Part shown: positions 45,978 to 59,939 of the stretch, piece by piece
Layout of the letters: each line of letters opens with the position of its first letter
Numbering within the stretch: position 1 is the stretch's first letter
Assembly: GCA_943327315.2 (NCBI GenBank)
Contig: CALPWQ020000001.1
Span: 627-64,626 of the forward strand
Reading direction: 5' to 3'
Source of the DNA: Chitinophaga pinensis
GTDB lineage: Bacteria; Bacteroidota; Bacteroidia; Flavobacteriales_D; Crocinitomicaceae
DNA: 64,000 bases
Notes under the pieces: model-generated
The model's database searches: none
What the model saw: the letters and a program-made list of their open reading frames with translations, nothing else
Told to the model about the DNA's origin: nothing
Translations under genes and position numbers: made by a program

Positions 45978-47087
45978 CTAGAAATTTCGGTTCAATTTTC
46001 TACCCTTCCATTTCGGTTTAAACCAGTACATCATACTCAATATGAGCACGGTGTATACTGGGAAAAGCAACTCGTAAACAGGAATAAAAAACCAGGAAGA
46101 CAAGCGTTTTATTCGCTGAAAATAGGGATAGAATAGAAGCATATCTATGGCCGTCTTTGCTGCGAAAACTGAACAAAAAGACCCCCATTCTCTTGCCATT
46201 CCTTTTGAAACGAGCAGTGCCACAAATGCGAAAGTCAATAGGGCTTGAACGATGGCCAGGGAAGTGCTCAAATGATCTTTTACATCACCTGTTTTTGCCA
46301 ACCATCTCAAGCGCTGATGGATAAATTCCAAAAATGATTGCGGTGTTTCTGTGCGAACGGCCAATGCTGAATCTGTTATTAAGCGCACATCCGCCTTACC
46401 CTCCCTAAAGTCCCTTAACAGATAAATATCATCACCACTTGGCATATGCTGGTGACGCGCAATGTGATCTAAACGTTCAAAAGCCTTCCTGCTGTACAAG
46501 AGATTCGCACCACTTGCCATGATTGGACGCTTCCACCCTGCCAATCCACAATTTGCTGCGTTGACTAAAATTAAATCCACTTCGTACAGATGCTCATACC
46601 AGCGTTGGGCAACCATCACTGCTGGAAGGATATACATATCTGCGTGTTCCAAAGTCGAAAGCGTCGAGAAATACGCATTCGCAAAAGACACATCGGCATC
46701 CATCGACAAAATCCATTGCCCACTGCTTTCGCTTATTCCACGTCGAATCGCTACTTTTTTTCCTTCCTCATGATCTGTTAAAGCAATCACCGTCGGATGT
46801 TTCCCTTGCCATTTCTTTTCAATTATTTCAGCTGAACCATCATCGGAATGGTCATCCACGAAGACATATTCTGCAGGATTTATCTTTGCTTGCTGAATCG
46901 ACTCAAGTAGTGGTATTAAGCGTGATGCCTCATTTCGAAAAGGGATAATTACAGATACCTGTTCATTCAACACCTTTTGATGACCAGTAACATAGTGCTT
47001 TTCCTTTCGCCGTTGAAGGAAATATCCAAACCCAATAATTCCAGTCATTATCCCTCCATACATCAAAAAAAACAGACATTCCATCAT
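45978..47087 (-). CDS. family 2 glycosyltransferase with C-terminal TM helices
   Basis: VSVIIPFRNE...VDDHSDDGS...MDADV...PSGDDIYL. The ATG at 47087 overlaps the upstream stop (ATGA). Confidence 0.8.
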   Translation of the reverse strand: MMECLFFLMYGGIMTGIIGFGYFLQRRKEKHYVTGHQKVLNEQVSVIIPFRNEASRLIPLLESIQQAKINPAEYVFVDDHSDDGSAEIIEKKWQGKHPTVIALTDHEEGKKVAIRRGISESSGQWILSMDADVSFANAYFSTLSTLEHADMYILPAVMVAQRWYEHLYEVDLILVNAANCGLAGWKRPIMASGANLLYSRKAFERLDHIARHQHMPSGDDIYLLRDFREGKADVRLITDSALAVRTETPQSFLEFIHQRLRWLAKTGDVKDHLSTSLAIVQALLTFAFVALLVSKGMAREWGSFCSVFAAKTAIDMLLFYPYFQRIKRLSSWFFIPVYELLFPVYTVLILSMMYWFKPKWKGRKLNRNF

Positions 47088-48581: not shown

Positions 48582-49226
48582 ATGAGTGGAGAACAGCGCT
48601 CCAAAATTGTGTTTTGGCCCCTTATCTCAATCGGCGGAATCCTCCTTTTTATGGTCTTATATCTGCTCGCTGCCTTCAAGTATCCTGGAGGGTCAGCAGT
48701 GAATGTGCACGAACTTGGCTTCAGCTGGCGCAACAATTATTGGTGTGAGCTGCTCGGGGAAAATGCTAAAAATGGTGACGCAAATACGGGCCGTACGTAT
48801 GGTTTGTTGGGCATGATTGTCCTGTCCATCTCCATTTCCATTTTCTGGTGGAACATTCCAACCATTGTGTACGAAAGGAGCAAATCCATTCGGAGCTTTA
48901 TGCGCTATTGCGGCATATTGTCCATGGTGTTTGCCTCCCTGATTTTCACCAATTGGCACGACGGCATCATCTATGTCGCAGTGATCTCAGGGACCATCGC
49001 TTTTACATTGCTGTTTTATGAGTTGTTTCGGAACAAGCGAGACTTCCTCTCCTACTTTGGTATTGTTTGCTTGGCGTTTATTTTCGCGAATTGCATCATC
49101 TATGTGAGCAATTTCGGCATTGACTTTCTTCCTCTGCTTCAAAAGATCACCTTTGGAATAACCTTACTATGGATCACCCTTGTCATTTTACAGTTGAAAA
49201 AACACCCCTATTCGCATACGTCATGA
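48582..49226 (+). CDS. integral membrane protein (DUF998-like, 6 TM)
   Basis: The ATG at 48582 follows the ruvC stop. The track's 48375 start overlaps ruvC and is rejected. Confidence 0.6.
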   Translation: MSGEQRSKIVFWPLISIGGILLFMVLYLLAAFKYPGGSAVNVHELGFSWRNNYWCELLGENAKNGDANTGRTYGLLGMIVLSISISIFWWNIPTIVYERSKSIRSFMRYCGILSMVFASLIFTNWHDGIIYVAVISGTIAFTLLFYELFRNKRDFLSYFGIVCLAFIFANCIIYVSNFGIDFLPLLQKITFGITLLWITLVILQLKKHPYSHTS

Positions 49227-49588
49227 TGAAAAAACATAAGCCCAACAAGAACATCCTTTCACCCAAAGACTTTGCCCTTCGGATGATCAAATTCTTTTTG
49301 ATTTCCATGAGTTTTATGGCCATTTCTCTGTTCATTGGAGTCATTGGTTACCGCCATTATGCCAACCTTTCTTGGGTTGACAGTTTTTACAATGCCTCAA
49401 TGATTCTCACGGGAATGGGACCTGGAAATGTGCTTACGACTACGGGAGGCAAAGTATTTTCATCCCTATACGCCTTATTTAGTGGAATCGTTTTTCTAAC
49501 CACCGCTGCGATTTTCATTTCACCGATTGCGCATCGACTGCTGCATGTGTTGCACGTAGATGATGAGGAACTACCTGAAGAAAATTAG
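49223..49588 (+). CDS. small 2-TM K+-channel-like pore-domain protein with divergent filter
   Basis: ATGA overlap with the upstream gene. TM1, pore-helix-like WVDSFYNASMILTGMGPGNV, then TM2 (compare canonical TxTTVGYGD). Confidence 0.6.
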   Translation: MMKKHKPNKNILSPKDFALRMIKFFLISMSFMAISLFIGVIGYRHYANLSWVDSFYNASMILTGMGPGNVLTTTGGKVFSSLYALFSGIVFLTTAAIFISPIAHRLLHVLHVDDEELPEEN

Positions 49589-49602
49589 TCTGCCTATTTG
49601 TA

Positions 49603-52600
49603 TTATCTAAATGAAAAGGCAGCGCCAATTTGTCCTTTGACCGCTTGGATTTCTGTTTCAATCCATTTCGGGAAATCAAGAAGAATTTGGTCATTTATTG
49701 TCACCCATTTTGAGGCACTGATGGCATAATCAGGAGCATCACCGAACAACACATCAACACGCATGCTGATCCACTGATGCCAAGCCGTCGGTTGAAAGCG
49801 AATATAACGCGCTAATACAGCGTTTGTGAAATTATTTTCCGAGAGGCTATCACGGTCCGTATTTGCAGGAATATCAACACCAATGGTGTCCCATGATTTT
49901 CCATCACTTGAAACAAAAAGATTGTACGATTTTACCCATTGATCCTGATTAAATCTTCCTTGGGTGCATACTCCCCAAACGGTTTTGACTTCTCCCAAAT
50001 CAATTTGAATCCACTGATTCTCATCTGACTTTTTGCTTGACCAATTGGCAAACTTCGGTTCACTGTTGATCCGCGCTAATTTTGCTGCGTGATTTTTATT
50101 GAAATCCGACGATGCACCAAAGGCCTCATCACTCAATACTTCTCTGCCCCACTGCGCATCAGAAAGCTCCGGTTTGTTCCCATTTTCTCGCAGAATCCAC
50201 CCCTCATTTTCTCGCATGAAGGTGTGAAAATCATTGGCCAATTGAGGTCCCTTTTTCACGCTTTTCAGTGTCATCGTCAGTCCAATCACTAAGTTAGATG
50301 GATCGTTTGCATTCAGCCCCCAACCTATCCAATGGTACCCTTGTTTCTTATTCGACGCAGCCACATAATCTAAATAGTATAGTCCTTTGGCGATATCCCG
50401 TTCCACTTTTATTGAATTCCCAAAACTCTGTTGTAACTCTCCATTCAACAAGGCATCCATGAGATGGTCGACACGCGACTGAAGCTCTGTGAGCGAGTGA
50501 ATTACTGGCGTTAGGCCAAGATAATCCAAGTAGTTCTTGGACGCACACAACGCGAATTCATCCACAAACGAAAGCGCAATTTGAGGCAATTGTTCGTGTA
50601 TTTCTTCTGTACTAACTTTTTTTCGATAGACGATGTGACCTGGTCTGTAATTGCGTTCAAAATCCGCATTCAAAAAATGAAAATCTTGCAGGACATCATC
50701 AATAGAAGTATGGTAGTCATTGATTCGTCCGCCACTACTTAAGGTCATGTGAAAATATACATCATTGGTGATGTAATCCGCAACAAAATCAAAAGAAAGC
50801 CGAACAATGTATCCATCCAAAGTAGAAACAACCCGGTAGCACATTTTACCACCTTGCGGGGTGCCAGCGATATCTTTGGTTACCTTACCTGAAGGTTTAA
50901 AATAGCGTTCTACCCCTGCTTCAATTTGATTAAGACATAAACGAATTTCCTCTTTGTTTTTTGCAAGAGGATCTATGATATCAATTAAGCTATTTTCATA
51001 ATCCTGAATAATTTCAGGAATGAGCACATTGAATAAATTGAACGTAATATCGAACGATTCAACGATTAATTCTGGATTATGAATGGTTTGTTGCGCGTCA
51101 AAAACAAACTGTATTTGCTCAAACCCATAATCGAAGTGAAAGGTCCAAGGGTATTTTTCCATCACCTCACTGATCGTACCGTAACTGTCATTTCCATTGC
51201 TATTCCAAAGCACTAGATTTTTGTACTTTTTGAACTCTTTTTCATATTTCAGCAAGAACTGAAACAGATTTCTTCGTGTGATTGCGAGCAATAAACCGAA
51301 GTGTTCAATCGATTTTTGGTCCTTCCAGTCGGGCAAGAAACCAACAGCCATCGATCCTGAACCGTACGCGGAAAGATGCAATGAAAGCGCTGCTTTAGTA
51401 ACTGCATTTTTCGGAAAAATACTGCACCAGGCATAGCTTGCCATGTTTCCAATTTGCCATTGATTTTGTTTCGTTCCCCATTCTAGACCACCATCTGTTT
51501 GCAGTAGTTTCAAGCGCAACTTTACAAATTGTTCCAAACTGGTGAAGGCGAATTTGTGCCAATATTCTTTCGACATCGCATTCGATGAATCGCCAACAAT
51601 TTTGTAATTGCTTGTTCCTCCTCCACTGTTCAAGCGATCCATGCTCATGATCCACGACCGGGCTATCGTTAGCGAATGAAAAGCAGACAGTTCTTCCTTT
51701 GAAAAAGAGACCGTCTCAGATTTTCTTGCGTCAATTGGATCAACGCCTAAGGCATAGGCCCTTGAATCGAACAGCTTGTCAAATGCATTGGGATGAACCC
51801 CGTATTGTTCGCCCATTAATTTCAAGACCAATTCGTTAAACGTCTTGTTTCGTATGGCTGCATCAATGGCATCCATGAATCGAGCATCAATTTCAGGGAA
51901 GGGGTTATCGATGTCCAATTCGGCTGCAGTTTGTAGAATGATCTCCTTTACTTGCTCTGAATTTAAACCCAGCTTCGTTCTAGATACGGATTCCAAAAAA
52001 CGAAATTCCTCCATGCTGATTTGCTTATCCTCCAAAGCAACGACAATGTGTTCCTTAAACTCAGAAAGCGAGCTCATTTTTCGGAGTTCTTCTTGTTCCT
52101 CTTTGATCCGCTCAACCGCCTTTGGATCGGGTTGAAGTAAGACTTTCCAATCGGCAGGCAATAAATGCTCGTTGGAATTCAATAAAACACGCACACCTTC
52201 GGGCAGTTCGAGATTTACATTGATCCGCTTTGAGTGGTCACCATCTTCAATATTGAGCACAATGACATTCTGATCGTTCTCAGAAACGATGTACTGATCG
52301 TAATCCCAGAGTGGATTTAGTTGATCGAGAACGCCCTGTATAGCCAACTCTAATGGCTCCAAAATGAAACGGTAACAATCGTCAGTGAATGGCCAATTGA
52401 TGGTTTTTCCTTTGACTTCGTAAATGGGATGAGCAATTTTATTTCGAAGTTCCACGAACTTGCTAAAAAACTGATTTAAATTACACTTCTTTAAGCTTGC
52501 TCCCTTCCTTGCCTGAATACATCTGTCATAAAGATTGTCTTTGTCATCAGACTCAACAACCTTCTTCAGGATATCCATGCAGGCGATGAAGTTGGCCAAG

Positions 52601-52914
52601 ACCTCATTTTGTTGCTCTTTGCGAATTAAATCATCCAGCAAAGAAGGCTTTTGACTATCAGCCAAGTGTTGACTTGTGTTTCTCACCCACCCGACATACG
52701 TTCCTACAGACAGTGACTTTTTCGTGTTGATGATCTCTTTTTCAAGCGACATAAGATGCGTACCTGTCTCTTTATATTCCGCCAAGACGAAGGAGCACAC
52801 ATGCATGATTAAACTCTCACCTAAATGCAAAAGGTAACGCTGACGTGCTTCGTAAAACTTTGCTTTGGCAATGTCATCCAAGGATTTAATGAACGATTGA
52901 GGGAGTCTAGACAT
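49603..52914 (-). CDS. orphan 1,103-aa protein: HEPN-like N-terminal domain (RNKIAH), unknown central regions, C-terminal F5/8 type C (discoidin) domain
   Basis: Uninterrupted 3.3-kb ORF. First ATG at 52914 (track start 52962 is GTG), with a TACCTTTC -7-like box ~17 nt upstream. FVELRNKIAHP fits the Rx4-6H HEPN motif. NQWIQIDLGE...ARYIRFQPTAWHQWISMRVDVLFG is a discoidin domain. No signal peptide, TM segment or Walker A seen. Confidence 0.85.
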   Translation of the reverse strand: MSRLPQSFIKSLDDIAKAKFYEARQRYLLHLGESLIMHVCSFVLAEYKETGTHLMSLEKEIINTKKSLSVGTYVGWVRNTSQHLADSQKPSLLDDLIRKEQQNEVLANFIACMDILKKVVESDDKDNLYDRCIQARKGASLKKCNLNQFFSKFVELRNKIAHPIYEVKGKTINWPFTDDCYRFILEPLELAIQGVLDQLNPLWDYDQYIVSENDQNVIVLNIEDGDHSKRINVNLELPEGVRVLLNSNEHLLPADWKVLLQPDPKAVERIKEEQEELRKMSSLSEFKEHIVVALEDKQISMEEFRFLESVSRTKLGLNSEQVKEIILQTAAELDIDNPFPEIDARFMDAIDAAIRNKTFNELVLKLMGEQYGVHPNAFDKLFDSRAYALGVDPIDARKSETVSFSKEELSAFHSLTIARSWIMSMDRLNSGGGTSNYKIVGDSSNAMSKEYWHKFAFTSLEQFVKLRLKLLQTDGGLEWGTKQNQWQIGNMASYAWCSIFPKNAVTKAALSLHLSAYGSGSMAVGFLPDWKDQKSIEHFGLLLAITRRNLFQFLLKYEKEFKKYKNLVLWNSNGNDSYGTISEVMEKYPWTFHFDYGFEQIQFVFDAQQTIHNPELIVESFDITFNLFNVLIPEIIQDYENSLIDIIDPLAKNKEEIRLCLNQIEAGVERYFKPSGKVTKDIAGTPQGGKMCYRVVSTLDGYIVRLSFDFVADYITNDVYFHMTLSSGGRINDYHTSIDDVLQDFHFLNADFERNYRPGHIVYRKKVSTEEIHEQLPQIALSFVDEFALCASKNYLDYLGLTPVIHSLTELQSRVDHLMDALLNGELQQSFGNSIKVERDIAKGLYYLDYVAASNKKQGYHWIGWGLNANDPSNLVIGLTMTLKSVKKGPQLANDFHTFMRENEGWILRENGNKPELSDAQWGREVLSDEAFGASSDFNKNHAAKLARINSEPKFANWSSKKSDENQWIQIDLGEVKTVWGVCTQGRFNQDQWVKSYNLFVSSDGKSWDTIGVDIPANTDRDSLSENNFTNAVLARYIRFQPTAWHQWISMRVDVLFGDAPDYAISASKWVTINDQILLDFPKWIETEIQAVKGQIGAAFSFR

Positions 52915-52992
52915 GTACTGTAAATTGAAAGGTATTTTGAAAATTTCCTTAAAAATAAGCACATTGCATCAATCTATCCAATAAAAAGAAAA

Positions 52993-53311
52993 ATGCAAAT
53001 ACTTGCAATAAGACGCAACAACTATTTGTTGGACAATAGCAGCCTGCTCTCTGCTCATTGGAGTCACTTTTTACCTGAATTACGCCAATTTTTATTGGAT
53101 AGACAGTTGCTACATTGCGTCAATGAATCTAAGCGGAATGGTCCATTGAAGTATCCCAACAACGACTGGAGCCAAAGTTTTTTCGTCGCTATACGCCTTA
53201 TTTAGTGGAATCGTTTTTCTAAGCACCGCTGCGATTTTCATTTCGCCAATTGCCCACAGGCTTTTGCATCTGTTGCATGTGGATGATGAAGAACTTATTG
53301 AAGAAAACTAA
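52993..53311 (+). pseudogene. decayed paralogue of the 49223..49588 channel-like gene
   Basis: Relative to the intact copy it has an 8-nt deficit (frameshift) near 53045..53056 and an in-frame TGA at 53147..53149 (GGA in the intact copy). The C-terminal 47 codons still read GAKVFSSLYALFSGIVFLSTAAIFISPIAHRLLHLLHVDDEELIEEN. Confidence 0.8.
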
Positions 53312-53339
53312 AGACTTAGATAAAAGTAATCCATAATCA

Positions 53340-53347
53340 TACCTTTG
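53340..53347 (+). promoter_or_regulatory. -7 promoter box TACCTTTG
   Basis: Exact TAnnTTTG, 17 nt upstream of the ATG at 53364. Confidence 0.4.
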
Positions 53348-53363
53348 TATAAAATTCTTTATT

Positions 53364-54809
53364 ATGCTGAAGTCATTCACATGCCTAGTCATATTCTATA
53401 TTTCTCTTTCTCAAATTTCTGCAGTTGGACAAAGTTCCAAATGGTCCACTCAAATTGAGAACGCCAATATTTTTTCCTCTCCTAGATTTGCTGATCTCAA
53501 CAAAGATGATGTACTCGATGTGATCATAGGTGCTGGGATGGAAGGATTAGAAAGCACAAATGGAATCGTTGCCTTCAATGGCGCAAACGGTGAAATTCTT
53601 TGGAATGTCAAGACGCACACACAGATTTACACCAGTGCACTATTCCAGGACATCACGAATGATGGTATCCCTGATGTTTTCATTGCAGGGAGAGACGCTG
53701 CCTTCTATGGCATCAATGGGTTAAACGGAGAAATTATTTGGGAGTTTTGGCCCAATAAAACCGAACCCGCTCGAAAGCAAGGGTGGTTAAATTTCTTTAC
53801 AACGCAATTCGTTGATGATCAAAATAATGATGGAATCAAAGACCTTCTAACAACAAATGGTGGTGACTATTTGGCAACTGCAAAAAAAAGAGATCGACCA
53901 ACTGCAAAACTAATGCTCTTGTGTGCTAAGACTGGCAAAATAATATCTTCATGTCAATTTCCTGAGAAAAAAGAATCGTATTATGCTCCGCACACCTATA
54001 CGACGAGTGAAGGTGAAACTATGATTGTATTTGGTACGGGTGGAGAAACCATAGATGGAGCACTTTGGCAGGTGCCTCTTAAAAAATTAGCCCAAGGAAA
54101 TATTTCCAAGTCTGAACTCATCGCACGAGATAAAATGAAAGGCTATATTTTGAATTCATTGCTGGCAGATTTGAATCGGGATGGAACAGCTGATCTGGTT
54201 ACTGTAGGGATGAGCTCAGCCATTGTTGCGCTAGATGGTGCTAATTTTAAGCCAATGTGGGAACATTCATTCGCAGGATACGAATGTTATGTAACCCCAT
54301 CCTTAGGACAAATGACCAGAGATTCAATTCCGGATGTTTTTACGATTCTTGCAAAGGGAACCTTCCCGAGTTATTCCAGTTTCAAATTGATCGTTATTGA
54401 CGGCAAAACTGGGGACATTGTCTGGCAAGAAGATTCTGGTTTCAACCAATTCTCTCCAGCGGTGCTCGCTGATTGGAACGAAGATGGAATTGACGAAATC
54501 ATCTATGTCCAAAATTCATTAGTTGATCCACAAAAGTTTTTCGTAGTCAATCAAGTTCGAGTGGTAGATCTAGAGAATGACCAAAACTGGTTCGTCGGAC
54601 CAATTAGAAATGGTGTCTCTATGGCCGCCTCTCCGGGTTTACTCGATCTAGATGGAGACGGCCAGTTCGAATTGCTTGTAGCCACATCTTCTATTGTTCC
54701 CCAAGGCACAAACCCTTTCAGTATAATTGAACGGATTGATTTACAGAAATCATTCAAATCAGTTCACTGGGATGGATATTTAGGGCCGAAAGGAAACGGA
54801 GAATATTAA
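53364..54809 (+). CDS. secreted FG-GAP / PQQ-like beta-propeller repeat protein
   Basis: Signal peptide. Repeated DLNKDDVLDVIIG, DITNDGIPDVFIAG, DDQNNDGIKDLLT, DLNRDGTADLV, DWNEDGIDEII, DLDGDGQFELLV motifs. Confidence 0.75.
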   Translation: MLKSFTCLVIFYISLSQISAVGQSSKWSTQIENANIFSSPRFADLNKDDVLDVIIGAGMEGLESTNGIVAFNGANGEILWNVKTHTQIYTSALFQDITNDGIPDVFIAGRDAAFYGINGLNGEIIWEFWPNKTEPARKQGWLNFFTTQFVDDQNNDGIKDLLTTNGGDYLATAKKRDRPTAKLMLLCAKTGKIISSCQFPEKKESYYAPHTYTTSEGETMIVFGTGGETIDGALWQVPLKKLAQGNISKSELIARDKMKGYILNSLLADLNRDGTADLVTVGMSSAIVALDGANFKPMWEHSFAGYECYVTPSLGQMTRDSIPDVFTILAKGTFPSYSSFKLIVIDGKTGDIVWQEDSGFNQFSPAVLADWNEDGIDEIIYVQNSLVDPQKFFVVNQVRVVDLENDQNWFVGPIRNGVSMAASPGLLDLDGDGQFELLVATSSIVPQGTNPFSIIERIDLQKSFKSVHWDGYLGPKGNGEY

Positions 54810-54827
54810 ACCCACATTTCGCCGCAA

Positions 54828-56456
54828 CTAATTCATTTTAATCGGGACTGGATTCTTCCCTTTTATCATTCGATATACCTGACCTGATTTCAAGTTGCTA
54901 AACTTAGAACTTGTGCCATCTGTCCAAAAAATCTCAAGCTCTTCGAGGTAATTTTCTTGGTCCAAACCATAATATAAAACAGCTGTCGATTGAGATGCTT
55001 GTCCACTGCCAGCATCCACCTCTTTCATCAAATTCCTGCTATGTTGCTTAAAAACAACTTGGCAACCGAAGCAATCTTGATTGACACCGTCATCTCCTTC
55101 CAGAATAATTCCTATCCAATGTAAAGCCTTCGTATCATTTCGAAACAACTTTATTTTTTGTTCAATTTTAGCGAATGCCGCCCAAGGCAATTTGACAACA
55201 GAAGAGACAATGTCCAAATCGCCATCATGATCAAAATCAAATACCGCTGCCCCTCTGTGGGAAAGGATATCATTCAAGCCGACTTCAGCGGAGATTTCAG
55301 TGAAATGACCCTGATCGTTTAAAAAGAACTTATTGGGATCGCGAATTACCGTTTTAGGAACCAAGGTGGCGACATTCCCCTTTGTTACATATAAATCGAG
55401 ATCTCCATCAAATTCAAGGTCAAAGAAGATTCCACTCCAGCTGGTTCCGCGAATTGAATCTTTCTCATAAGTGAGATCGACTTTTAAAGCTCGGGCCTGA
55501 TCCACCAATTTGCCTTTGTCATTTTGATAAAGATAATTTCGCCCGATGTTTGTCACATAAAAATCTAAATCTGCATCCTCATCGTAGTCACCTTGACCAA
55601 TTCCCATTCCATACATGAAATTTTCAAAACCATTTTCACGTGTTGCATCGCTAAAAATAGGTTCAGGGAATTCATTTCTGAAGTACTTATTTCCCTCACC
55701 AGTCCATTCACCGAAATCATTCAACAGCAATAAATCTTGGTCACCATCGTGATCCACATCAGTAAAACTCGCAGAAAGGCCACATCCACCATCGGAAATT
55801 CCATACTCATTCGCGCATTCAACAAATGATTTCCCGTCCTTATTCAATAACAACTTATTCTCTAAACATTTCGCATCATAGCCAATCACGACTCCATTGG
55901 AATCCGTTATACCTCCCATAGAGGCGACATAATTGGTGATATAGACATCAGAAAATCCATCTTTATTGATATCTCCCCAGCATGCTGATGAAAAATTACC
56001 CGGAGCAATAACCTTCTCTAAGCTGATCAATTCAAACGATTCGCCTTTGATATTTTTCATGATTGCCGGTGCATGCTTATCACCACGCCCCATTCCTACG
56101 CCATAATTCGCGACAATGAAATCTCTATATCCATCGTTATTGTAATCTGCGGCAACGGCACCCTGAATAAAATATCCCGATAGAGCATTCAATCCAAAAT
56201 CAGCCGTGCCATCTATAAAGAATCCACCTTTATTGATCCAAAGTTTGGAATCAAACACACCTCCCGCTTGGAAAAGATCCTCCCAGCCGTCATTGTTGAC
56301 ATCAATGACCATCACACCGCCACCGGCCATCTGAAAATCATTACCGGGATAAAGATAATTCATGCCTTTTTCCGAAGAGACCTCCGTAAAATGGACTTGG
56401 CCATGTGCTTGAAACAGCGCATTGATGCAGAAAAAAACAAGAGAAAATCGAATCAT
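54828..56456 (-). CDS. CRTAC1-family protein (FG-GAP/VCBS repeats plus ASPIC/UnbV C-terminal domain)
   Basis: Repeats VNNDGWEDLF, YNNDGYRDFIV, INKDGFSDVYI, VDHDGDQDLLL, FDHDGDLDIV. C-terminal UnbV-like GSGQASQSTAVLYYGL. ATGA overlap with the upstream gene. Confidence 0.8.
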   Translation of the reverse strand: MIRFSLVFFCINALFQAHGQVHFTEVSSEKGMNYLYPGNDFQMAGGGVMVIDVNNDGWEDLFQAGGVFDSKLWINKGGFFIDGTADFGLNALSGYFIQGAVAADYNNDGYRDFIVANYGVGMGRGDKHAPAIMKNIKGESFELISLEKVIAPGNFSSACWGDINKDGFSDVYITNYVASMGGITDSNGVVIGYDAKCLENKLLLNKDGKSFVECANEYGISDGGCGLSASFTDVDHDGDQDLLLLNDFGEWTGEGNKYFRNEFPEPIFSDATRENGFENFMYGMGIGQGDYDEDADLDFYVTNIGRNYLYQNDKGKLVDQARALKVDLTYEKDSIRGTSWSGIFFDLEFDGDLDLYVTKGNVATLVPKTVIRDPNKFFLNDQGHFTEISAEVGLNDILSHRGAAVFDFDHDGDLDIVSSVVKLPWAAFAKIEQKIKLFRNDTKALHWIGIILEGDDGVNQDCFGCQVVFKQHSRNLMKEVDAGSGQASQSTAVLYYGLDQENYLEELEIFWTDGTSSKFSNLKSGQVYRMIKGKNPVPIKMN

Positions 56457-57787
56457 TGCTTCGTGCAGTTAATTGACTTCAACACATAGGACCCAATGAT
56501 TCGTCCAAAATACAAACTCGTATCTAAGGTTGTTTTAAAATGAATGCCGCCATAAAATCGAGACATTGAAATCTCCTCAGACAATTGAGTAAATGACGCA
56601 TAGGTTCGAGCAGTGCCATCGATGTCAGACCTCCAGATGTTTGTGTTGTCACTAAATTCTAATGTATCTGAAAAATACTCTTTTAAGACCTGAGTTCCTG
56701 CACCAGATTGAAATGAATGTCCCGATGGGAACTCTGGAAATGAAGGCGTAGCAATAAACGTATTAAATTGTGGGTCTATAAATCTCTGAATATAGGAAAT
56801 TGGCCTCAATAAATTAAATGTGTATTTCAACTTCCAACAATGAATAAAGGCCTCATTGATGGCCACCCCCATTTTTACATACAGTTCCATCGCCTTGGCT
56901 GGCGCCAATTTTCTTTGTTCGACCAACTGAAGCGCCAACTGCATTAAATGTCCCGTTGGCGTTCCCGAATAACCTGGCGAATCATCCCAATATTCTGCAA
57001 TCAGCTCATGCGCAGGATTTGGTTCTTTAGCTGTTTTATAGAGTAAAAGTGCATCCTTAAACATTGGAGAATTTTCTTCCTTTGAAAACGGCATAGGTTT
57101 GCAGCCAATGAGCAGACTGTCACCTCCAAAAATCAAGTGTTTATTCAAACCCCAAAATGGCTGAACAGCTGAGAAATATCCAGGAGTTGTTTTTGTCCAG
57201 CAGGAATAACAAACAGGAGGTTTATAGTCTTCCGGATAATTTTTATTGAATCCTTCATCTGACCCATCATTTTTAGACCAATCGATGATCATTTGAGCGA
57301 TATCATTTCCGTACTCCAAGGAAAGTCTGCGCTTTTCACGGGAAATATTGCGCGAATAAGATCGCTCAATAGAATCCGAAAGTGCTGCGACTCTTAAGGC
57401 ATTCGAGGGCGGCATATTTCGGTATAAGTATTCCAAAATTCTCTTGTCTACAGTATTTGCCACCAAACACCAATCAATGAGCGCGGGATCAGAAGACCAC
57501 TTATTCCTTTGATAGCCATCTAATTGACCAGATAGTGATTGCTGCTCTGCATACAATTCAACGGTACTTTCAAAAATACCTATGGTAAAATATGCATAAG
57601 CTCGCGCGCTTACAGGTGCAGAAAATCCCACCGTATTTTTCGTGAGAACAAATGACTCCTTAATCCATCTATTATGAATCATGAGGCACTTATCCTGTTC
57701 CGCGATTTTCAATCCGAATACCTGTGTAAAATTGCTTAGAAACAAAAGGAAACTGAAGGTCCTGAACATGGTAGAAATTGACATCAT
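56453..57787 (-). CDS. vanadium-dependent haloperoxidase-like / PAP2-superfamily protein, secreted
   Basis: PAP2 signature in three parts: KYTFNLLRP, PSGHS, SRFYGGIHF. Signal peptide. Confidence 0.75.
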   Translation of the reverse strand: MMSISTMFRTFSFLLFLSNFTQVFGLKIAEQDKCLMIHNRWIKESFVLTKNTVGFSAPVSARAYAYFTIGIFESTVELYAEQQSLSGQLDGYQRNKWSSDPALIDWCLVANTVDKRILEYLYRNMPPSNALRVAALSDSIERSYSRNISREKRRLSLEYGNDIAQMIIDWSKNDGSDEGFNKNYPEDYKPPVCYSCWTKTTPGYFSAVQPFWGLNKHLIFGGDSLLIGCKPMPFSKEENSPMFKDALLLYKTAKEPNPAHELIAEYWDDSPGYSGTPTGHLMQLALQLVEQRKLAPAKAMELYVKMGVAINEAFIHCWKLKYTFNLLRPISYIQRFIDPQFNTFIATPSFPEFPSGHSFQSGAGTQVLKEYFSDTLEFSDNTNIWRSDIDGTARTYASFTQLSEEISMSRFYGGIHFKTTLDTSLYFGRIIGSYVLKSINCTKQ

Positions 57788-57948
57788 GTAAAAATAATGA
57801 AATTAACCATTCTGTTCAACCATTTTTCCCCACAGCATGCGAGCAATTCCCAATCTTTCGATGTGGATTATTTATTCACTCAAGGCATTCATACGTGTTA
57901 TTTCTATCCTCATCAATCGTTTCTAGGAGCATTCCAAAAGCAATTGTT

Positions 57949-58305
57949 ATGGCACGAAGCAAAAAAGAGATCGCACAAGAGATGCGCGAAAAGAATTGGG
58001 ATTCAATCGGAGAATATGAAAGCTGCCGCAAAAATCTGCGCATTTCCAAGTTCAAGAAATATACGATGGCACCCGCATGGTTGGTTGTACTTGTTTTAGC
58101 CGCCTATTTCAAGTGTCCTGCTTGGGCAATGGTATTGGCAAGTATCCCTGTCTTTCTAAAAATCAGAAAGATCGACAAAGAGTTGGATCATCGCATCCGG
58201 TGTTCGACACTCGCCATGTTCTGCCTTGAAATTGAATTTGGTGCATCAAAAGCGAGCGATGAACCAGAGATGACCGAAGAACTGATTGAATTGTTTCGGG
58301 AATAA
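57949..58305 (+). CDS. hypothetical 118-aa protein with central TM pair
   Basis: First ATG of the frame. The longer track ORF overlaps the divergent gene start. Confidence 0.45.
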   Translation: MARSKKEIAQEMREKNWDSIGEYESCRKNLRISKFKKYTMAPAWLVVLVLAAYFKCPAWAMVLASIPVFLKIRKIDKELDHRIRCSTLAMFCLEIEFGASKASDEPEMTEELIELFRE

Positions 58306-58475
58306 ACGCCCTCGTATTGGCTGAGGCTCTCGTGTTGGCTGAGGCCCTCGAAGCCAACTCGTAAGACAATTACATCAAAGATGCCATATACACTAGATCG
58401 TCTGAAATTTTATGGAGAGGACGCCAATGTTGTTTAAGATCTTTACACAATAACAAACAGCTGGTATCTTTCTAT

Positions 58476-58796
58476 TTATTTAAATACAGGATAACCACAT
58501 ACATAGAGTCCCACAAAAAAGATGAGAATTTGTGGCATTAACACGCGAAACAAAAACTTAGTTGTCATTTTATCAGCCATTTGCATTTGTGCTAAATACA
58601 CCCAACCAAATAAAAAGCACCAAATAAATGCTGCATGATTATTCCCCATTGGATCTGAAATACAGGTTTCTTGATGTGACACTAATGGAGAATAAATTGT
58701 AAACACATAAGCTGCGAAAATTCCACCAGACATATTTCCTGCGATATAATGCACATTGATCATCGCGCGAATGACATTCATGATTTTATCTTTCAT
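58476..58796 (-). CDS. hypothetical small membrane protein (106 aa, ~3 TM)
   Basis: ATG ORF with hydrophobic segments. Confidence 0.5.
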   Translation of the reverse strand: MKDKIMNVIRAMINVHYIAGNMSGGIFAAYVFTIYSPLVSHQETCISDPMGNNHAAFIWCFLFGWVYLAQMQMADKMTTKFLFRVLMPQILIFFVGLYVCGYPVFK

Positions 58797-58861
58797 TTTG
58801 ATAAGAGTTTTACGTTCAAATAGATATAAAAATGTAAGCTTTTACTTCAAAAAAAATCAAC

Positions 58862-59233
58862 TTACTTGAAAAAATAAGTAAGAATCAGCATTTGTTCTGG
58901 GCACTCATTTGTTGACGCTTGAACATATTTTTCGAACTGTTCATCCGTCAAGTTGTAATCCGTAATAATTTGTTCTACTCCTTTCTCCCATTTCGATTTA
59001 AATTGTTCCACAATCGGAACTAAAATACCTGGATTATTATCTGTGAGTTTCAAAATCGTATCATGAAAATCTCCCGTTGTCCTTGCTGTTTCGGTTAACT
59101 TTTCAATGAATTTTGAATCAAATGTCTTCAAGGAGTTGTCGGCACAGTCACATAAAAGAGAACTTGACGGAAGTGCTTGTTCACCACATGAAACAAGAAG
59201 CAATCCGATGCTAAAAACAAATAGATATTTCAT
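58862..59233 (-). CDS. hypothetical lipoprotein (123 aa)
   Basis: Lipobox-like LLLVSCGE after the signal sequence. Confidence 0.55.
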   Translation of the reverse strand: MKYLFVFSIGLLLVSCGEQALPSSSLLCDCADNSLKTFDSKFIEKLTETARTTGDFHDTILKLTDNNPGILVPIVEQFKSKWEKGVEQIITDYNLTDEQFEKYVQASTNECPEQMLILTYFFK

Positions 59234-59534
59234 AATTAATTATTAGTGAGCAACTTTATGATGTCAGGCATCAAATATCAGTATTTTATTTAAGTAATTT
59301 AATTTCCTCAGAAACAACGCAAGCAAAAAAATAAGGTGATTTTATTTACCGGAGCGATTGCCGCATCGTCATCGTTTACAGGTGCATTTAGGGCCGCTAA
59401 ATTTGTCGCAGATGAACAACCATTAGTCGACTATTTTTAACACTAAATTTTCTTATTTTATTTAAGAATCGATGCGACTCATTACCTATTAAAACAATAA
59501 ATCGCTTGGTGCCATTTGAGTCATTCCGTCAACT

Positions 59535-59939
59535 TTATTTATACATTTTCAGCACCACTGGCCTCGTCGTATCTTGCAACACTGACGTTCCATTACCACC
59601 CAATTTCCCTGACTCTTGGTTCAACAATTCAAGCACCTCCGCATAGATTTCTTGCATTTGCGTTTGATGAGAGGCATAGTAATCCATGCTCATTTCAAAT
59701 TGCTTTGGCGTTACCTTGTACTTCTTGAAAATCGCCTTCCCAGACAGGATCATTGTTTCTTGAAAACGTGAAACATGACCATACTTGAGCTGAACATGGG
59801 ACTCCACCAAGCTCAGTTCCTTCATGATCTTTACAAACTTTTCCTTTTCTATGAGGTTATCCGGTGCAGGTTTTGAACCGATTTGATCCGTGCAAGAAAA
59901 TAGCACAACCCACAAAAACATCCCTAGGTACTTTTTCAT
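59535..59939 (-). CDS. DUF4296-like lipoprotein
   Basis: Signal plus lipobox VLFSCTD. Overlaps the pyrC stop (operon). The family call is from memory of the typical pyrC-adjacent gene in Bacteroidota. Confidence 0.55.
   Translation of the reverse strand: MKKYLGMFLWVVLFSCTDQIGSKPAPDNLIEKEKFVKIMKELSLVESHVQLKYGHVSRFQETMILSGKAIFKKYKVTPKQFEMSMDYYASHQTQMQEIYAEVLELLNQESGKLGGNGTSVLQDTTRPVVLKMYK

Follow-up and report, generated by a model that had tools for sequence, protein, structure and literature searches.

The window analysed here is a stretch of 64,000 nt (positions 627 to 64,626 of contig CALPWQ020000001.1, assembly GCA_943327315.2, filed under Chitinophaga pinensis and placed by GTDB in the Crocinitomicaceae), and our subject is a locus within it where a small channel-like gene occurs twice on the same strand, intact on the left and dead on the right, with one large gene between the two copies (Table 1). 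The intact copy, which we call the A allele, follows a gene for a 214-aa membrane protein; the dead copy is followed by a short spacer and a three-gene module that opens with an FG-GAP propeller gene. An earlier note, made on this DNA by eye, had recognized the two copies and proposed that the ~3.7-kb segment bracketed by them, with its supposedly orphan open reading frame (ORF), was a recent insertion. Relatives that carry comparable loci are referred to by locus numbers (L001, L006 and so on).

The protein of the left copy has two predicted transmembrane segments and a pore-loop-like stretch. Its score against Ion_trans_2 (PF07885), 21.9 bits with E=1.6e-4, is borderline, lying below the gathering cut-off of 22.5, and a precomputed Pfam hit is present on one homologue, P0039. 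The family is very large in the Flavobacteriia, and the conserved S-M-I-L-T-G-M-G-P sits where a T-V-G-Y-G filter would be expected; judged from the sequence, it would be filter-like but non-canonical. The start codon overlaps the stop codon of the 214-aa gene by 4 nt (ATGA, 49223-49226), an overlap also called in L008, L013 and L014, and the coupling to an upstream membrane-protein gene described in the earlier note is thereby borne out; the 214-aa gene itself matched no Pfam family. Against L008 the left channel gene has a dN/dS of 0.05, and its tail, ELPEEN*, is the same as that in L006, a lineage with the large gene. In L001 (11349-11714, minus strand), and also in L002-L005, the channel gene carries an in-frame TAA (SF*NAS vs SFYNAS), seen on five contigs from different samples, and in this lineage, which has an array of genes including a STAND NTPase gene, the channel gene appears dispensable or pseudogenised.

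A blastn comparison of the channel gene with the window places the right copy at 53048..53310, aligned without gaps to nt 103-365 of the gene (codons 35-121; 79.5% identity over 263 nt, E=3e-63). No other match within the 64 kb is better than E=0.07, so the similarity first seen by eye is significant when computed. Several of its details were reproduced exactly: CTATACGCCTTATTTAGTGGAATCGTTTTTCTA, the 33-nt run identical in both copies, lies at 49466 and 53189 (53189-53221), 22 positions differ in the final 144 nt, of the differences over nt 214-339, 14 are at third codon positions as against three at first and two at second ones, and an in-frame TGA stands in place of GGA at 53147..53149. The filter-like GMGPG reads GMVH* in the relic. 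The extent of the copy had been misjudged. Its start had been put at 52993, but 52993..53047 is not channel DNA; homology begins at ~53041-53048, at about codon 33-35, and the start codon and first ~34 codons are missing. The right copy is a pseudogene, a 5'-truncated relic of the channel gene, and the earlier verdict that it is dead stands on the TGA and the truncation. The 8-nt deficit near 53045..53056, which had been listed among its lesions, falls away, since it came from non-homologous sequence having been forced into the alignment.

The two halves of the relic differ in their divergence from the left copy. The 5' half gives a dN of 0.27 and a dN/dS of 0.44, whereas nt 214-339 of the 3' half give a dN/dS of 0.04 with a proportion of differing synonymous sites (pS) of 0.48, no higher than among intact orthologues of different lineages; relaxed constraint does not, therefore, run along the whole relic. 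Purifying selection on both copies before one decayed, which had been proposed from the codon positions, agrees with these computed values. Between the two copies pS is 0.42-0.48, as against 0.05-0.22 for neighbouring genes compared between the window and L008, and the relic differs by 15-25% from every channel allele sampled. The tails differ as well (ELPEEN on the left, ELIEEN on the right), each being matched in a different lineage, and the last 27 nt of the relic (53285-53311) are identical to L008 at 27 of 27 positions. Taken together, the sequences indicate that the two copies are diverged alleles that had been under purifying selection before one died, not the products of a recent duplication in situ.

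Decay was also counted, both in the window relic and in the corresponding relic of L030, at invariant sites, where seven intact channel genes all agree. Among 71 such sites in the 5' half (nt 103-213), eight are changed in both relics, eight in the window only and seven in L030 only, for a total of 16 changes in the window relic. Among 80 sites in the 3' half (nt 214-339), the corresponding counts are two, none and 21; nt 313 is changed in both relics but differently, which brings the window total there to three of 80. The two changes common to both 3' halves are conservative, G76A and T93S. The private changes of the 5' half (15/71) fit neutral divergence at the large-gene pS of 0.18 between the window and L030; at that rate about eight private changes would be expected in the 3' half of the window relic, and none is seen except nt 313.

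A 70-aa ORF at 52993-53205 on the plus strand covers the junction and the 5' half of the relic in the -1 frame, and it has been called as a gene in public annotations. It is open also in L030 (5299-5511, minus strand), where the ~20 N-terminal residues alone are conserved. Intact channel genes carry a TGA in this frame, and a T>A change at nt 156, synonymous for the channel, removes it in both relics. The ORF is probably spurious. We considered and rejected overprinting, that is, 52993..53205 as a new gene behind the non-synonymous excess, since only the first ~20 residues are kept and the frame is a different one past a 1-nt insertion. In the reading favoured below, the relic has no function of its own and serves solely as the right-hand homology arm.

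The origin of the relic can be followed in L030, a contig from a metagenome-assembled genome (MAG) that is a GTDB representative. It is 89-92% identical to the window and shares with it the upstream region of the large gene, the junction and the relic. There, however, the relic runs on into the channel-to-s118 spacer homologous to that of L013 and then into s118, a backbone gene of 118 aa that in L013 directly follows the channel gene, and the FG-GAP module is missing. Because the L030 relic is continuous with the native spacer and s118, the dead copy is the resident channel gene and not cargo. The earlier note had favoured a xenologous copy arriving with the inserted DNA, or else allelic replacement anchored on the channel gene; diverged alleles are indeed present and replacement comes close to the data, but the copy did not come in as inserted cargo. 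The large gene has a pS of 0.18 between the window and L030, far below the 0.25-0.86 of the genes that lie beyond the relic on the right (s118 0.40, s123 0.86, DUF4296 0.63, amidohydrolase 0.39, GT2 0.32).

The other side of the relic is a join between sequences of different origin. Past the large gene, the window stays collinear with L001-5 to 53026 and with L006, L014, L027 and L033 to 52976-52987. On the minus strand, 53027-53050 then reads REQAAIVQ, to be compared with IEKAAIVS* at the end of the STAND (NPHP3_N/AAA_16) gene of L001. That gene, of 497 aa, precedes the large gene in L001-5, and L006 retains a stump of it, a 173-aa ORF that corresponds to the C-terminus of the L001 protein at 78% identity. 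The match to the STAND gene end immediately before the relic implies that the incoming DNA ended within the last codons of such a gene. TTTCTCT is found both in the STAND gene end (L001) and at nt ~97-103 of the channel gene, and is a microhomology between non-homologous sequences within the 3-12 nt looked for in a scar of homology-facilitated illegitimate recombination (HFIR), to which it lends moderate support, the remnant being short. The window arrangement is ~100% identical in two independent assemblies from two samples, and the product of the 70-aa ORF that spans the junction (P0268) is recorded on 10 contigs (NCBI, Logan, ENA), with a second junction ORF product (P0270) on three, the longest of 43.8 kb; a metagenome scan with a 26-mer across the junction gave no match.

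A single-copy site, which the earlier note had suggested looking for, does exist in L008-L011. These loci are 93.7-96.6% identical to the window and read ruvC, 214-aa gene, one channel gene, 52-nt spacer and FG-GAP gene. The channel gene there is not, however, that of a pristine empty site. In the three-way alignment, the L008 gene resembles the left copy as far as nt 336 (~94%) and is identical to the right copy from nt 345; over nt 340-366 it matches the right copy at 100% and the left at 78%, and the switch falls in GATGATGA, at gene nt 337-344. The single-copy gene of L008 is itself a hybrid of the two window copies. Either it arose by deletion between the copies at GATGATGA, or the left flank and most of the channel gene entered a B-type background in an independent allelic replacement, with a crossover at the very end of the channel homology. 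Synonymous divergence between the window and L008 (~0.12 in the left flank, 0.095 in the right) does not discriminate between these origins.

The large gene is not an orphan. At least 27 full-length homologues of its product were found, at 33-100% identity, and the 27 loci in GTDB representatives belong to Flavobacteriales, Crocinitomicaceae or Bacteroidota MAGs, with a few evidently mislabelled taxa. In L001-5, L006/7, L014/15 and L027 it keeps its position and its convergent orientation, at a distance of 6-38 nt from the channel gene; L033 has a near-identical gene on a contig that ends inside it, with the channel side out of view, and in the more distant homologues (34-45% identity) it is not adjacent to a channel gene. 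Its pS between the window and L006, L014 and L001 is 0.46, 0.52 and 0.75, where the flanking core genes have 0.43-0.75, 0.21-0.78 and 0.50-0.78, respectively. As the gene tracks the flanking core genes in all three outgroups, it must have been resident for long and is not a recent arrival. The compositional contrast expected of an inserted segment is likewise absent, the GC content of 49589..53047 being 0.411 vs 0.427 and 0.405 in the flanks, with a tetranucleotide composition like that of the flanks. With the large gene beside the channel gene in more distant lineages, its synonymous divergence equal to that of core genes and the relic resident in L030, the proposal of a recent ~3.7-kb insertion has to be given up.

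The reading that we favour, with a probability of about 0.6, is that the right copy is the relic of a resident B allele on a ruvC - 214-aa gene - channel - s118 backbone, and that the present arrangement was made in three steps. In the first, DNA from a related lineage would have brought in the A allele of the channel gene together with the 1103-aa gene that converges on it and, from the STAND gene preceding the latter, the 3' end. Illegitimate recombination at TCTCT would have fused this DNA to about codon 33 of the resident channel gene; the joined structure is seen directly, and the mechanism is deduced from it. The other end presumably entered by homologous recombination in the conserved left flank, as in HFIR; the left flank is collinear with all relatives, and no crossover point can be mapped there. 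This would have left A as the only working channel gene, beside a relic that lacks a promoter and its 5' part. In the second step, the relic decayed neutrally, as shown by the eight substitutions at otherwise invariant sites that it has in common with the L030 relic, and by additional substitutions found in one lineage or the other, the TGA of the window among them. In the third, the A copy, the large gene, the junction and the 5' half of the relic may have recombined with a relative in which an intact B-type channel gene was followed by the FG-GAP/ASPIC/PAP2 module, the right-hand crossover falling within the relic at around nt 213-227 of the gene (~53158-53172). A crossover there would join an old 5' half to a 3' half that had not decayed, and it would explain why the window is so much closer to L030 in the large gene than in anything to the right. 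A chimeric relic made by later homologous exchange is the simplest reading of the two halves. The locus is thus a recombination scar of a known kind at a hotspot for accessory genes, a case of ordinary mosaicism with no new mechanism.

Several points weigh against this reading. An intact B-type channel gene beside the FG-GAP module was found in no genome searched, and the partner of the third step is hypothetical. The L030 contig ends inside the large gene, so that its left flank is not seen. The remnant of the STAND gene is only ~24 nt and the microhomology 5-7 nt, and both could have arisen by chance. G76A and T93S, shared with L030, fit a 3' half from the same B lineage, but they would also fit a single 3' half that was protected and never replaced. 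Between 53067 and 53258, 16 of the 19 relic-specific changes at invariant sites are transversions, nine of these being G:C>T:A, an unusual excess in a small sample that simple neutral decay does not predict. Finally, the three steps are ordered as if descent were tree-like, in a population that is clearly mosaic.

The alternative in which the relic is a single unreplaced piece whose 3' half is kept by selection, for example as promoter or leader DNA of the FG-GAP module or as part of a translated product, is in our view unlikely. It would account for the absence of window-only changes at 80 sites of the 3' half (nt 313 aside) when the 5' half has eight at 71, and for the two changes held in common with L030; a Bacteroidetes-type -7 motif lies just downstream (53340-53347), and the FG-GAP gene has lost read-through from the ruvC operon. 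But no start codon opens the channel frame past the TGA, complete constraint over 150 nt far exceeds what a promoter needs, the 3' half decays freely in L030, and the right flank, from s118 to GT2, likewise shows a much greater distance to L030 than the large gene does, which points to recombination rather than to selection.

A more speculative idea, which we hold to be rather improbable, is that the large gene, the A channel gene and the relic form a recombinase-free "homing" cassette, in which the relic is kept as a landing arm and the HEPN-like/discoidin protein is defence cargo. If it were true, the two channel arms would allow entry into any related genome that bears the channel gene, whatever lies downstream, and would renew the 3' half of the relic each time.

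Quite improbable, too, is the proposal closest to the earlier note, a mobile cassette of ~3.7 kb that was recently inserted, through a circular intermediate with a segment homologous to the channel gene and a single Campbell-type or site-specific crossover, into an L008-like site and duplicated part of its target. The clean single-copy site of L008-L011, the one block of 3.72 kb by which the window differs from L008, and the GATGATGA interval, which marks the switch on both sides, are what such an event would leave. As had been noted earlier, though, no integrase, transposase or terminal repeats lie between the copies; one gene fills the block, and no recombinase domain was found in its product with Pfam or PADLOC. 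The sole long identical run, of 33 nt, is away from the switch point, the window relic and that of L030 share eight derived substitutions and an identical junction, and the contiguity of the L030 relic with native DNA makes it resident; the divergence of the large gene from three outgroups, moreover, parallels that of the core genes around it, and the composition is that of the flanks.

A tandem duplication of the channel gene in situ, followed by decay of one copy, is very hard to sustain: the copies do lie on the same strand 3.8 kb apart with a 33-nt identical run, but their pS greatly exceeds that of neighbouring genes between the window and L008, the dN/dS of the 3' half implies divergence while both were functional, and the two tails match different lineages. 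An assembly chimera is scarcely credible. Metagenomic contigs such as this one can be misassembled at repeats, but the region is ~100% the same in assemblies made independently from two samples, the junction ORF product is on 10 contigs, the same junction occurs in a MAG of a different species-level group, and copies 79% identical are too diverged to collapse.

Table 1. Features of the channel-gene locus in the window and cargo at the same place in relatives (strand given as + or -)
Feature	Position	Strand	Remarks
214-aa membrane-protein gene	48582..49226	+	stop codon overlaps channel start (ATGA)
Intact 121-aa small channel-like gene, A allele	49223..49588	+	Ion_trans_2 borderline; 2383 homologues
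Switch interval GATGATGA, gene nt 337-344	49559..49566	+	L008 turns from left-copy-like to right-copy-like
1103-aa accessory gene, convergent with channel gene	49603..52914	-	N-terminal ~925 aa and C-terminal F5/8 type C (discoidin)
Upstream intergenic region of large gene	52915..53026		shared with relatives carrying other cargo
Putative remnant, last ~8 codons of STAND (NPHP3_N/AAA_16) NTPase gene	53027..53050	-	~17/25 nt identical to L001
Putative illegitimate junction, TCTCT microhomology	53046..53050		from alignments; identical in L030
Dead copy, 5' half, codons 35-~72	53048..53160	+	old, decayed; TGA 53147-53149
Dead copy, 3' half, codons ~73-121 and stop	53161..53311	+	"fresh" B-type allele
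52-nt spacer and three-gene module	53312..57948		Pfam
FG-GAP propeller gene	53364-54809	+	Pfam
FG-GAP/ASPIC gene	54828-56456	-	Pfam
PAP2/VCPO gene	56453-57787	-	Pfam
118-aa backbone gene s118	57949..58305	+	L013 3552-3959 and L030 3973-5090 align here
Cargo, window and L008			FG-GAP / ASPIC / PAP2-VCPO three-gene module
Cargo, L001-5			co-directional 1208-aa, TPR 1070-aa, 513-aa and STAND (NPHP3_N/AAA_16) 497-aa genes
Cargo, L006			173-aa stump of STAND gene
Cargo, L014/15			Metallophos and AAA genes
Cargo, L013			DUF350/OmpA/DUF4407 genes; without the large gene

The relic lies in a variable region. Collinearity with all relatives stops at 52976-53026 and returns at ~59540, at DUF4296/amidohydrolase/GT2, and between the channel gene and these genes the cargo differs in every lineage sampled. 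The FG-GAP module follows the channel gene only in the clade of the window and L008, being absent there in L030, L013, L006, L014 and L001. Its three genes form a module conserved in the Crocinitomicaceae/Fluviicola (L016, L018-L021, L026), with order and location varying, and the FG-GAP homologues (58-74% identity) are located elsewhere, beside NUDIX, CysS/PolA or Pro_dh; scans of genome and metagenome contigs with the FG-GAP protein found nothing. As homologues of FG-GAP sit elsewhere and L030 has the relic without the module, we discarded the idea that the relic had arrived together with the module from a lineage in which the two are natively adjacent. In the module-borne 52-nt spacer, TACCTTTG at 53340-53347 fits TAnnTTTG, the Bacteroidetes -7 promoter consensus, and lies 17 nt upstream of the FG-GAP start. 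PADLOC found no known defence system in the cargo of L001, L013 or L014 nor in the large gene, and a "defence island" was therefore dropped as a finding and kept only as a lead.

Two further differences were seen in this part of the window. The low-GC (~0.34) stretch 58305-59544, with minus-strand ORFs at 58476-58796 (106 aa) and 58862-59233 (123 aa) that belong to no Pfam family, is missing in L008 and is present, highly diverged (66-72% nt identity), in L014, L015 and L030; it is a second indel in the hotspot. In the glycosyltransferase gene 45978-47087 (minus strand), which has a pS of 0.42 and a pN of 0.075 over its whole length against L008, about 500 nt (46000-46500) are 73% identical to L008 and the flanks 91-96%, a pattern suggestive either of a short tract of recombination or of a hypervariable part of the GT2 gene.

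The C-terminus of the 1103-aa protein is an F5/8 type C (discoidin) domain (F5_F8_type_C, PF00754, E=3.3e-27), with PDB profile matches at 5e-41 and Foldseek TM-scores (target-normalised) of 0.74-0.88 to C2/discoidin domains. No family was assigned to the N-terminal ~925 aa. In the AlphaFold2 models, with predicted local distance difference test scores of 84.7 for the full-length protein and 89.9 for the N-terminal 290 aa, the N-terminus is confidently modelled as a helical bundle and a small beta domain; the PDB neighbours of the full model are to the discoidin domain only, and the N-terminal 290-aa model has no fold match at E<0.04. LRNxxAHP (aa 156-163) is invariant in the 27 homologues, lies within a helix (146-161) and has the form of the HEPN Rx4-6H motif. 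The profile scores fall short of HEPN assignment (HEPN_RiboL-PSP E=0.005, 17 bits vs a cut-off of 28; PADLOC RTasHEPN E=0.04), and a HEPN relationship of the N-terminus may be regarded as a lead, not an assignment. In L001-5 the large gene is the last of a five-gene co-directional array that includes the STAND NTPase and a TPR protein. L028, L030, L034 and L050, which carry close homologues, are labelled Chryseobacterium gleum, Chitinophaga pinensis or Comamonadaceae; these four MAG contigs are 72-98% identical to the Crocinitomicaceae-like locus, and going by that similarity the labels are probably binning or labelling errors.

Known systems of three kinds come closest to the locus. Scars of HFIR were reportedly described by de Vries and Wackernagel in 2002. 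Events with one homologous and one illegitimate end are documented, and HFIR is known both from bacteria with natural transformation and from conjugation in E. coli (PMC3240628). As in HFIR, one side of the acquired segment in the window is collinear with a conserved flank, and the other joins the STAND gene end to about codon 33 of the channel gene at 5-7 nt of microhomology, truncating the target. The differences are that the event here is deduced from comparison, with its homologous end unmapped, and that the incoming DNA carried a working allele of the gene it disrupted, so that no function was lost. The locus also resembles variable-region hotspots between core genes, with alternative cargo in each lineage and no mobility genes, except that here a pseudogene relic in the hotspot seemingly served as the crossover site, which gave a chimeric relic. 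Integrative elements that insert at gene 3' ends, such as those of tRNA genes, with att duplication, likewise leave an intact gene at the near boundary and a partial copy at the far one. In the present case, however, there is no encoded recombinase, the repeats are 79% identical where an att core would be identical, the switch interval is just the 8-nt GATGATGA, the supposedly "empty" site of L008 has a hybrid gene, L030 shows the partial copy to be resident DNA, and there is no constant outer boundary.

The locus provides a clear and datable example of accessory genes moving at a hotspot without a mobility gene in uncultured freshwater Flavobacteriales (Crocinitomicaceae-like MAGs). The route would start with one illegitimate join and go on by ordinary homologous exchange, in which crossovers can fall inside a pseudogene relic. 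The L030, window and L008 types represent three natural states, and they supply an internal clock for pseudogene decay. They also illustrate that an apparent "empty site" can itself be recombinant. Two practical points for annotation follow: the "orphan" ORF belongs to a conserved family of 1100-aa proteins that merits its own study, and the channel gene, with its nonsense codon in L001-5, appears to be dispensable in at least one lineage.

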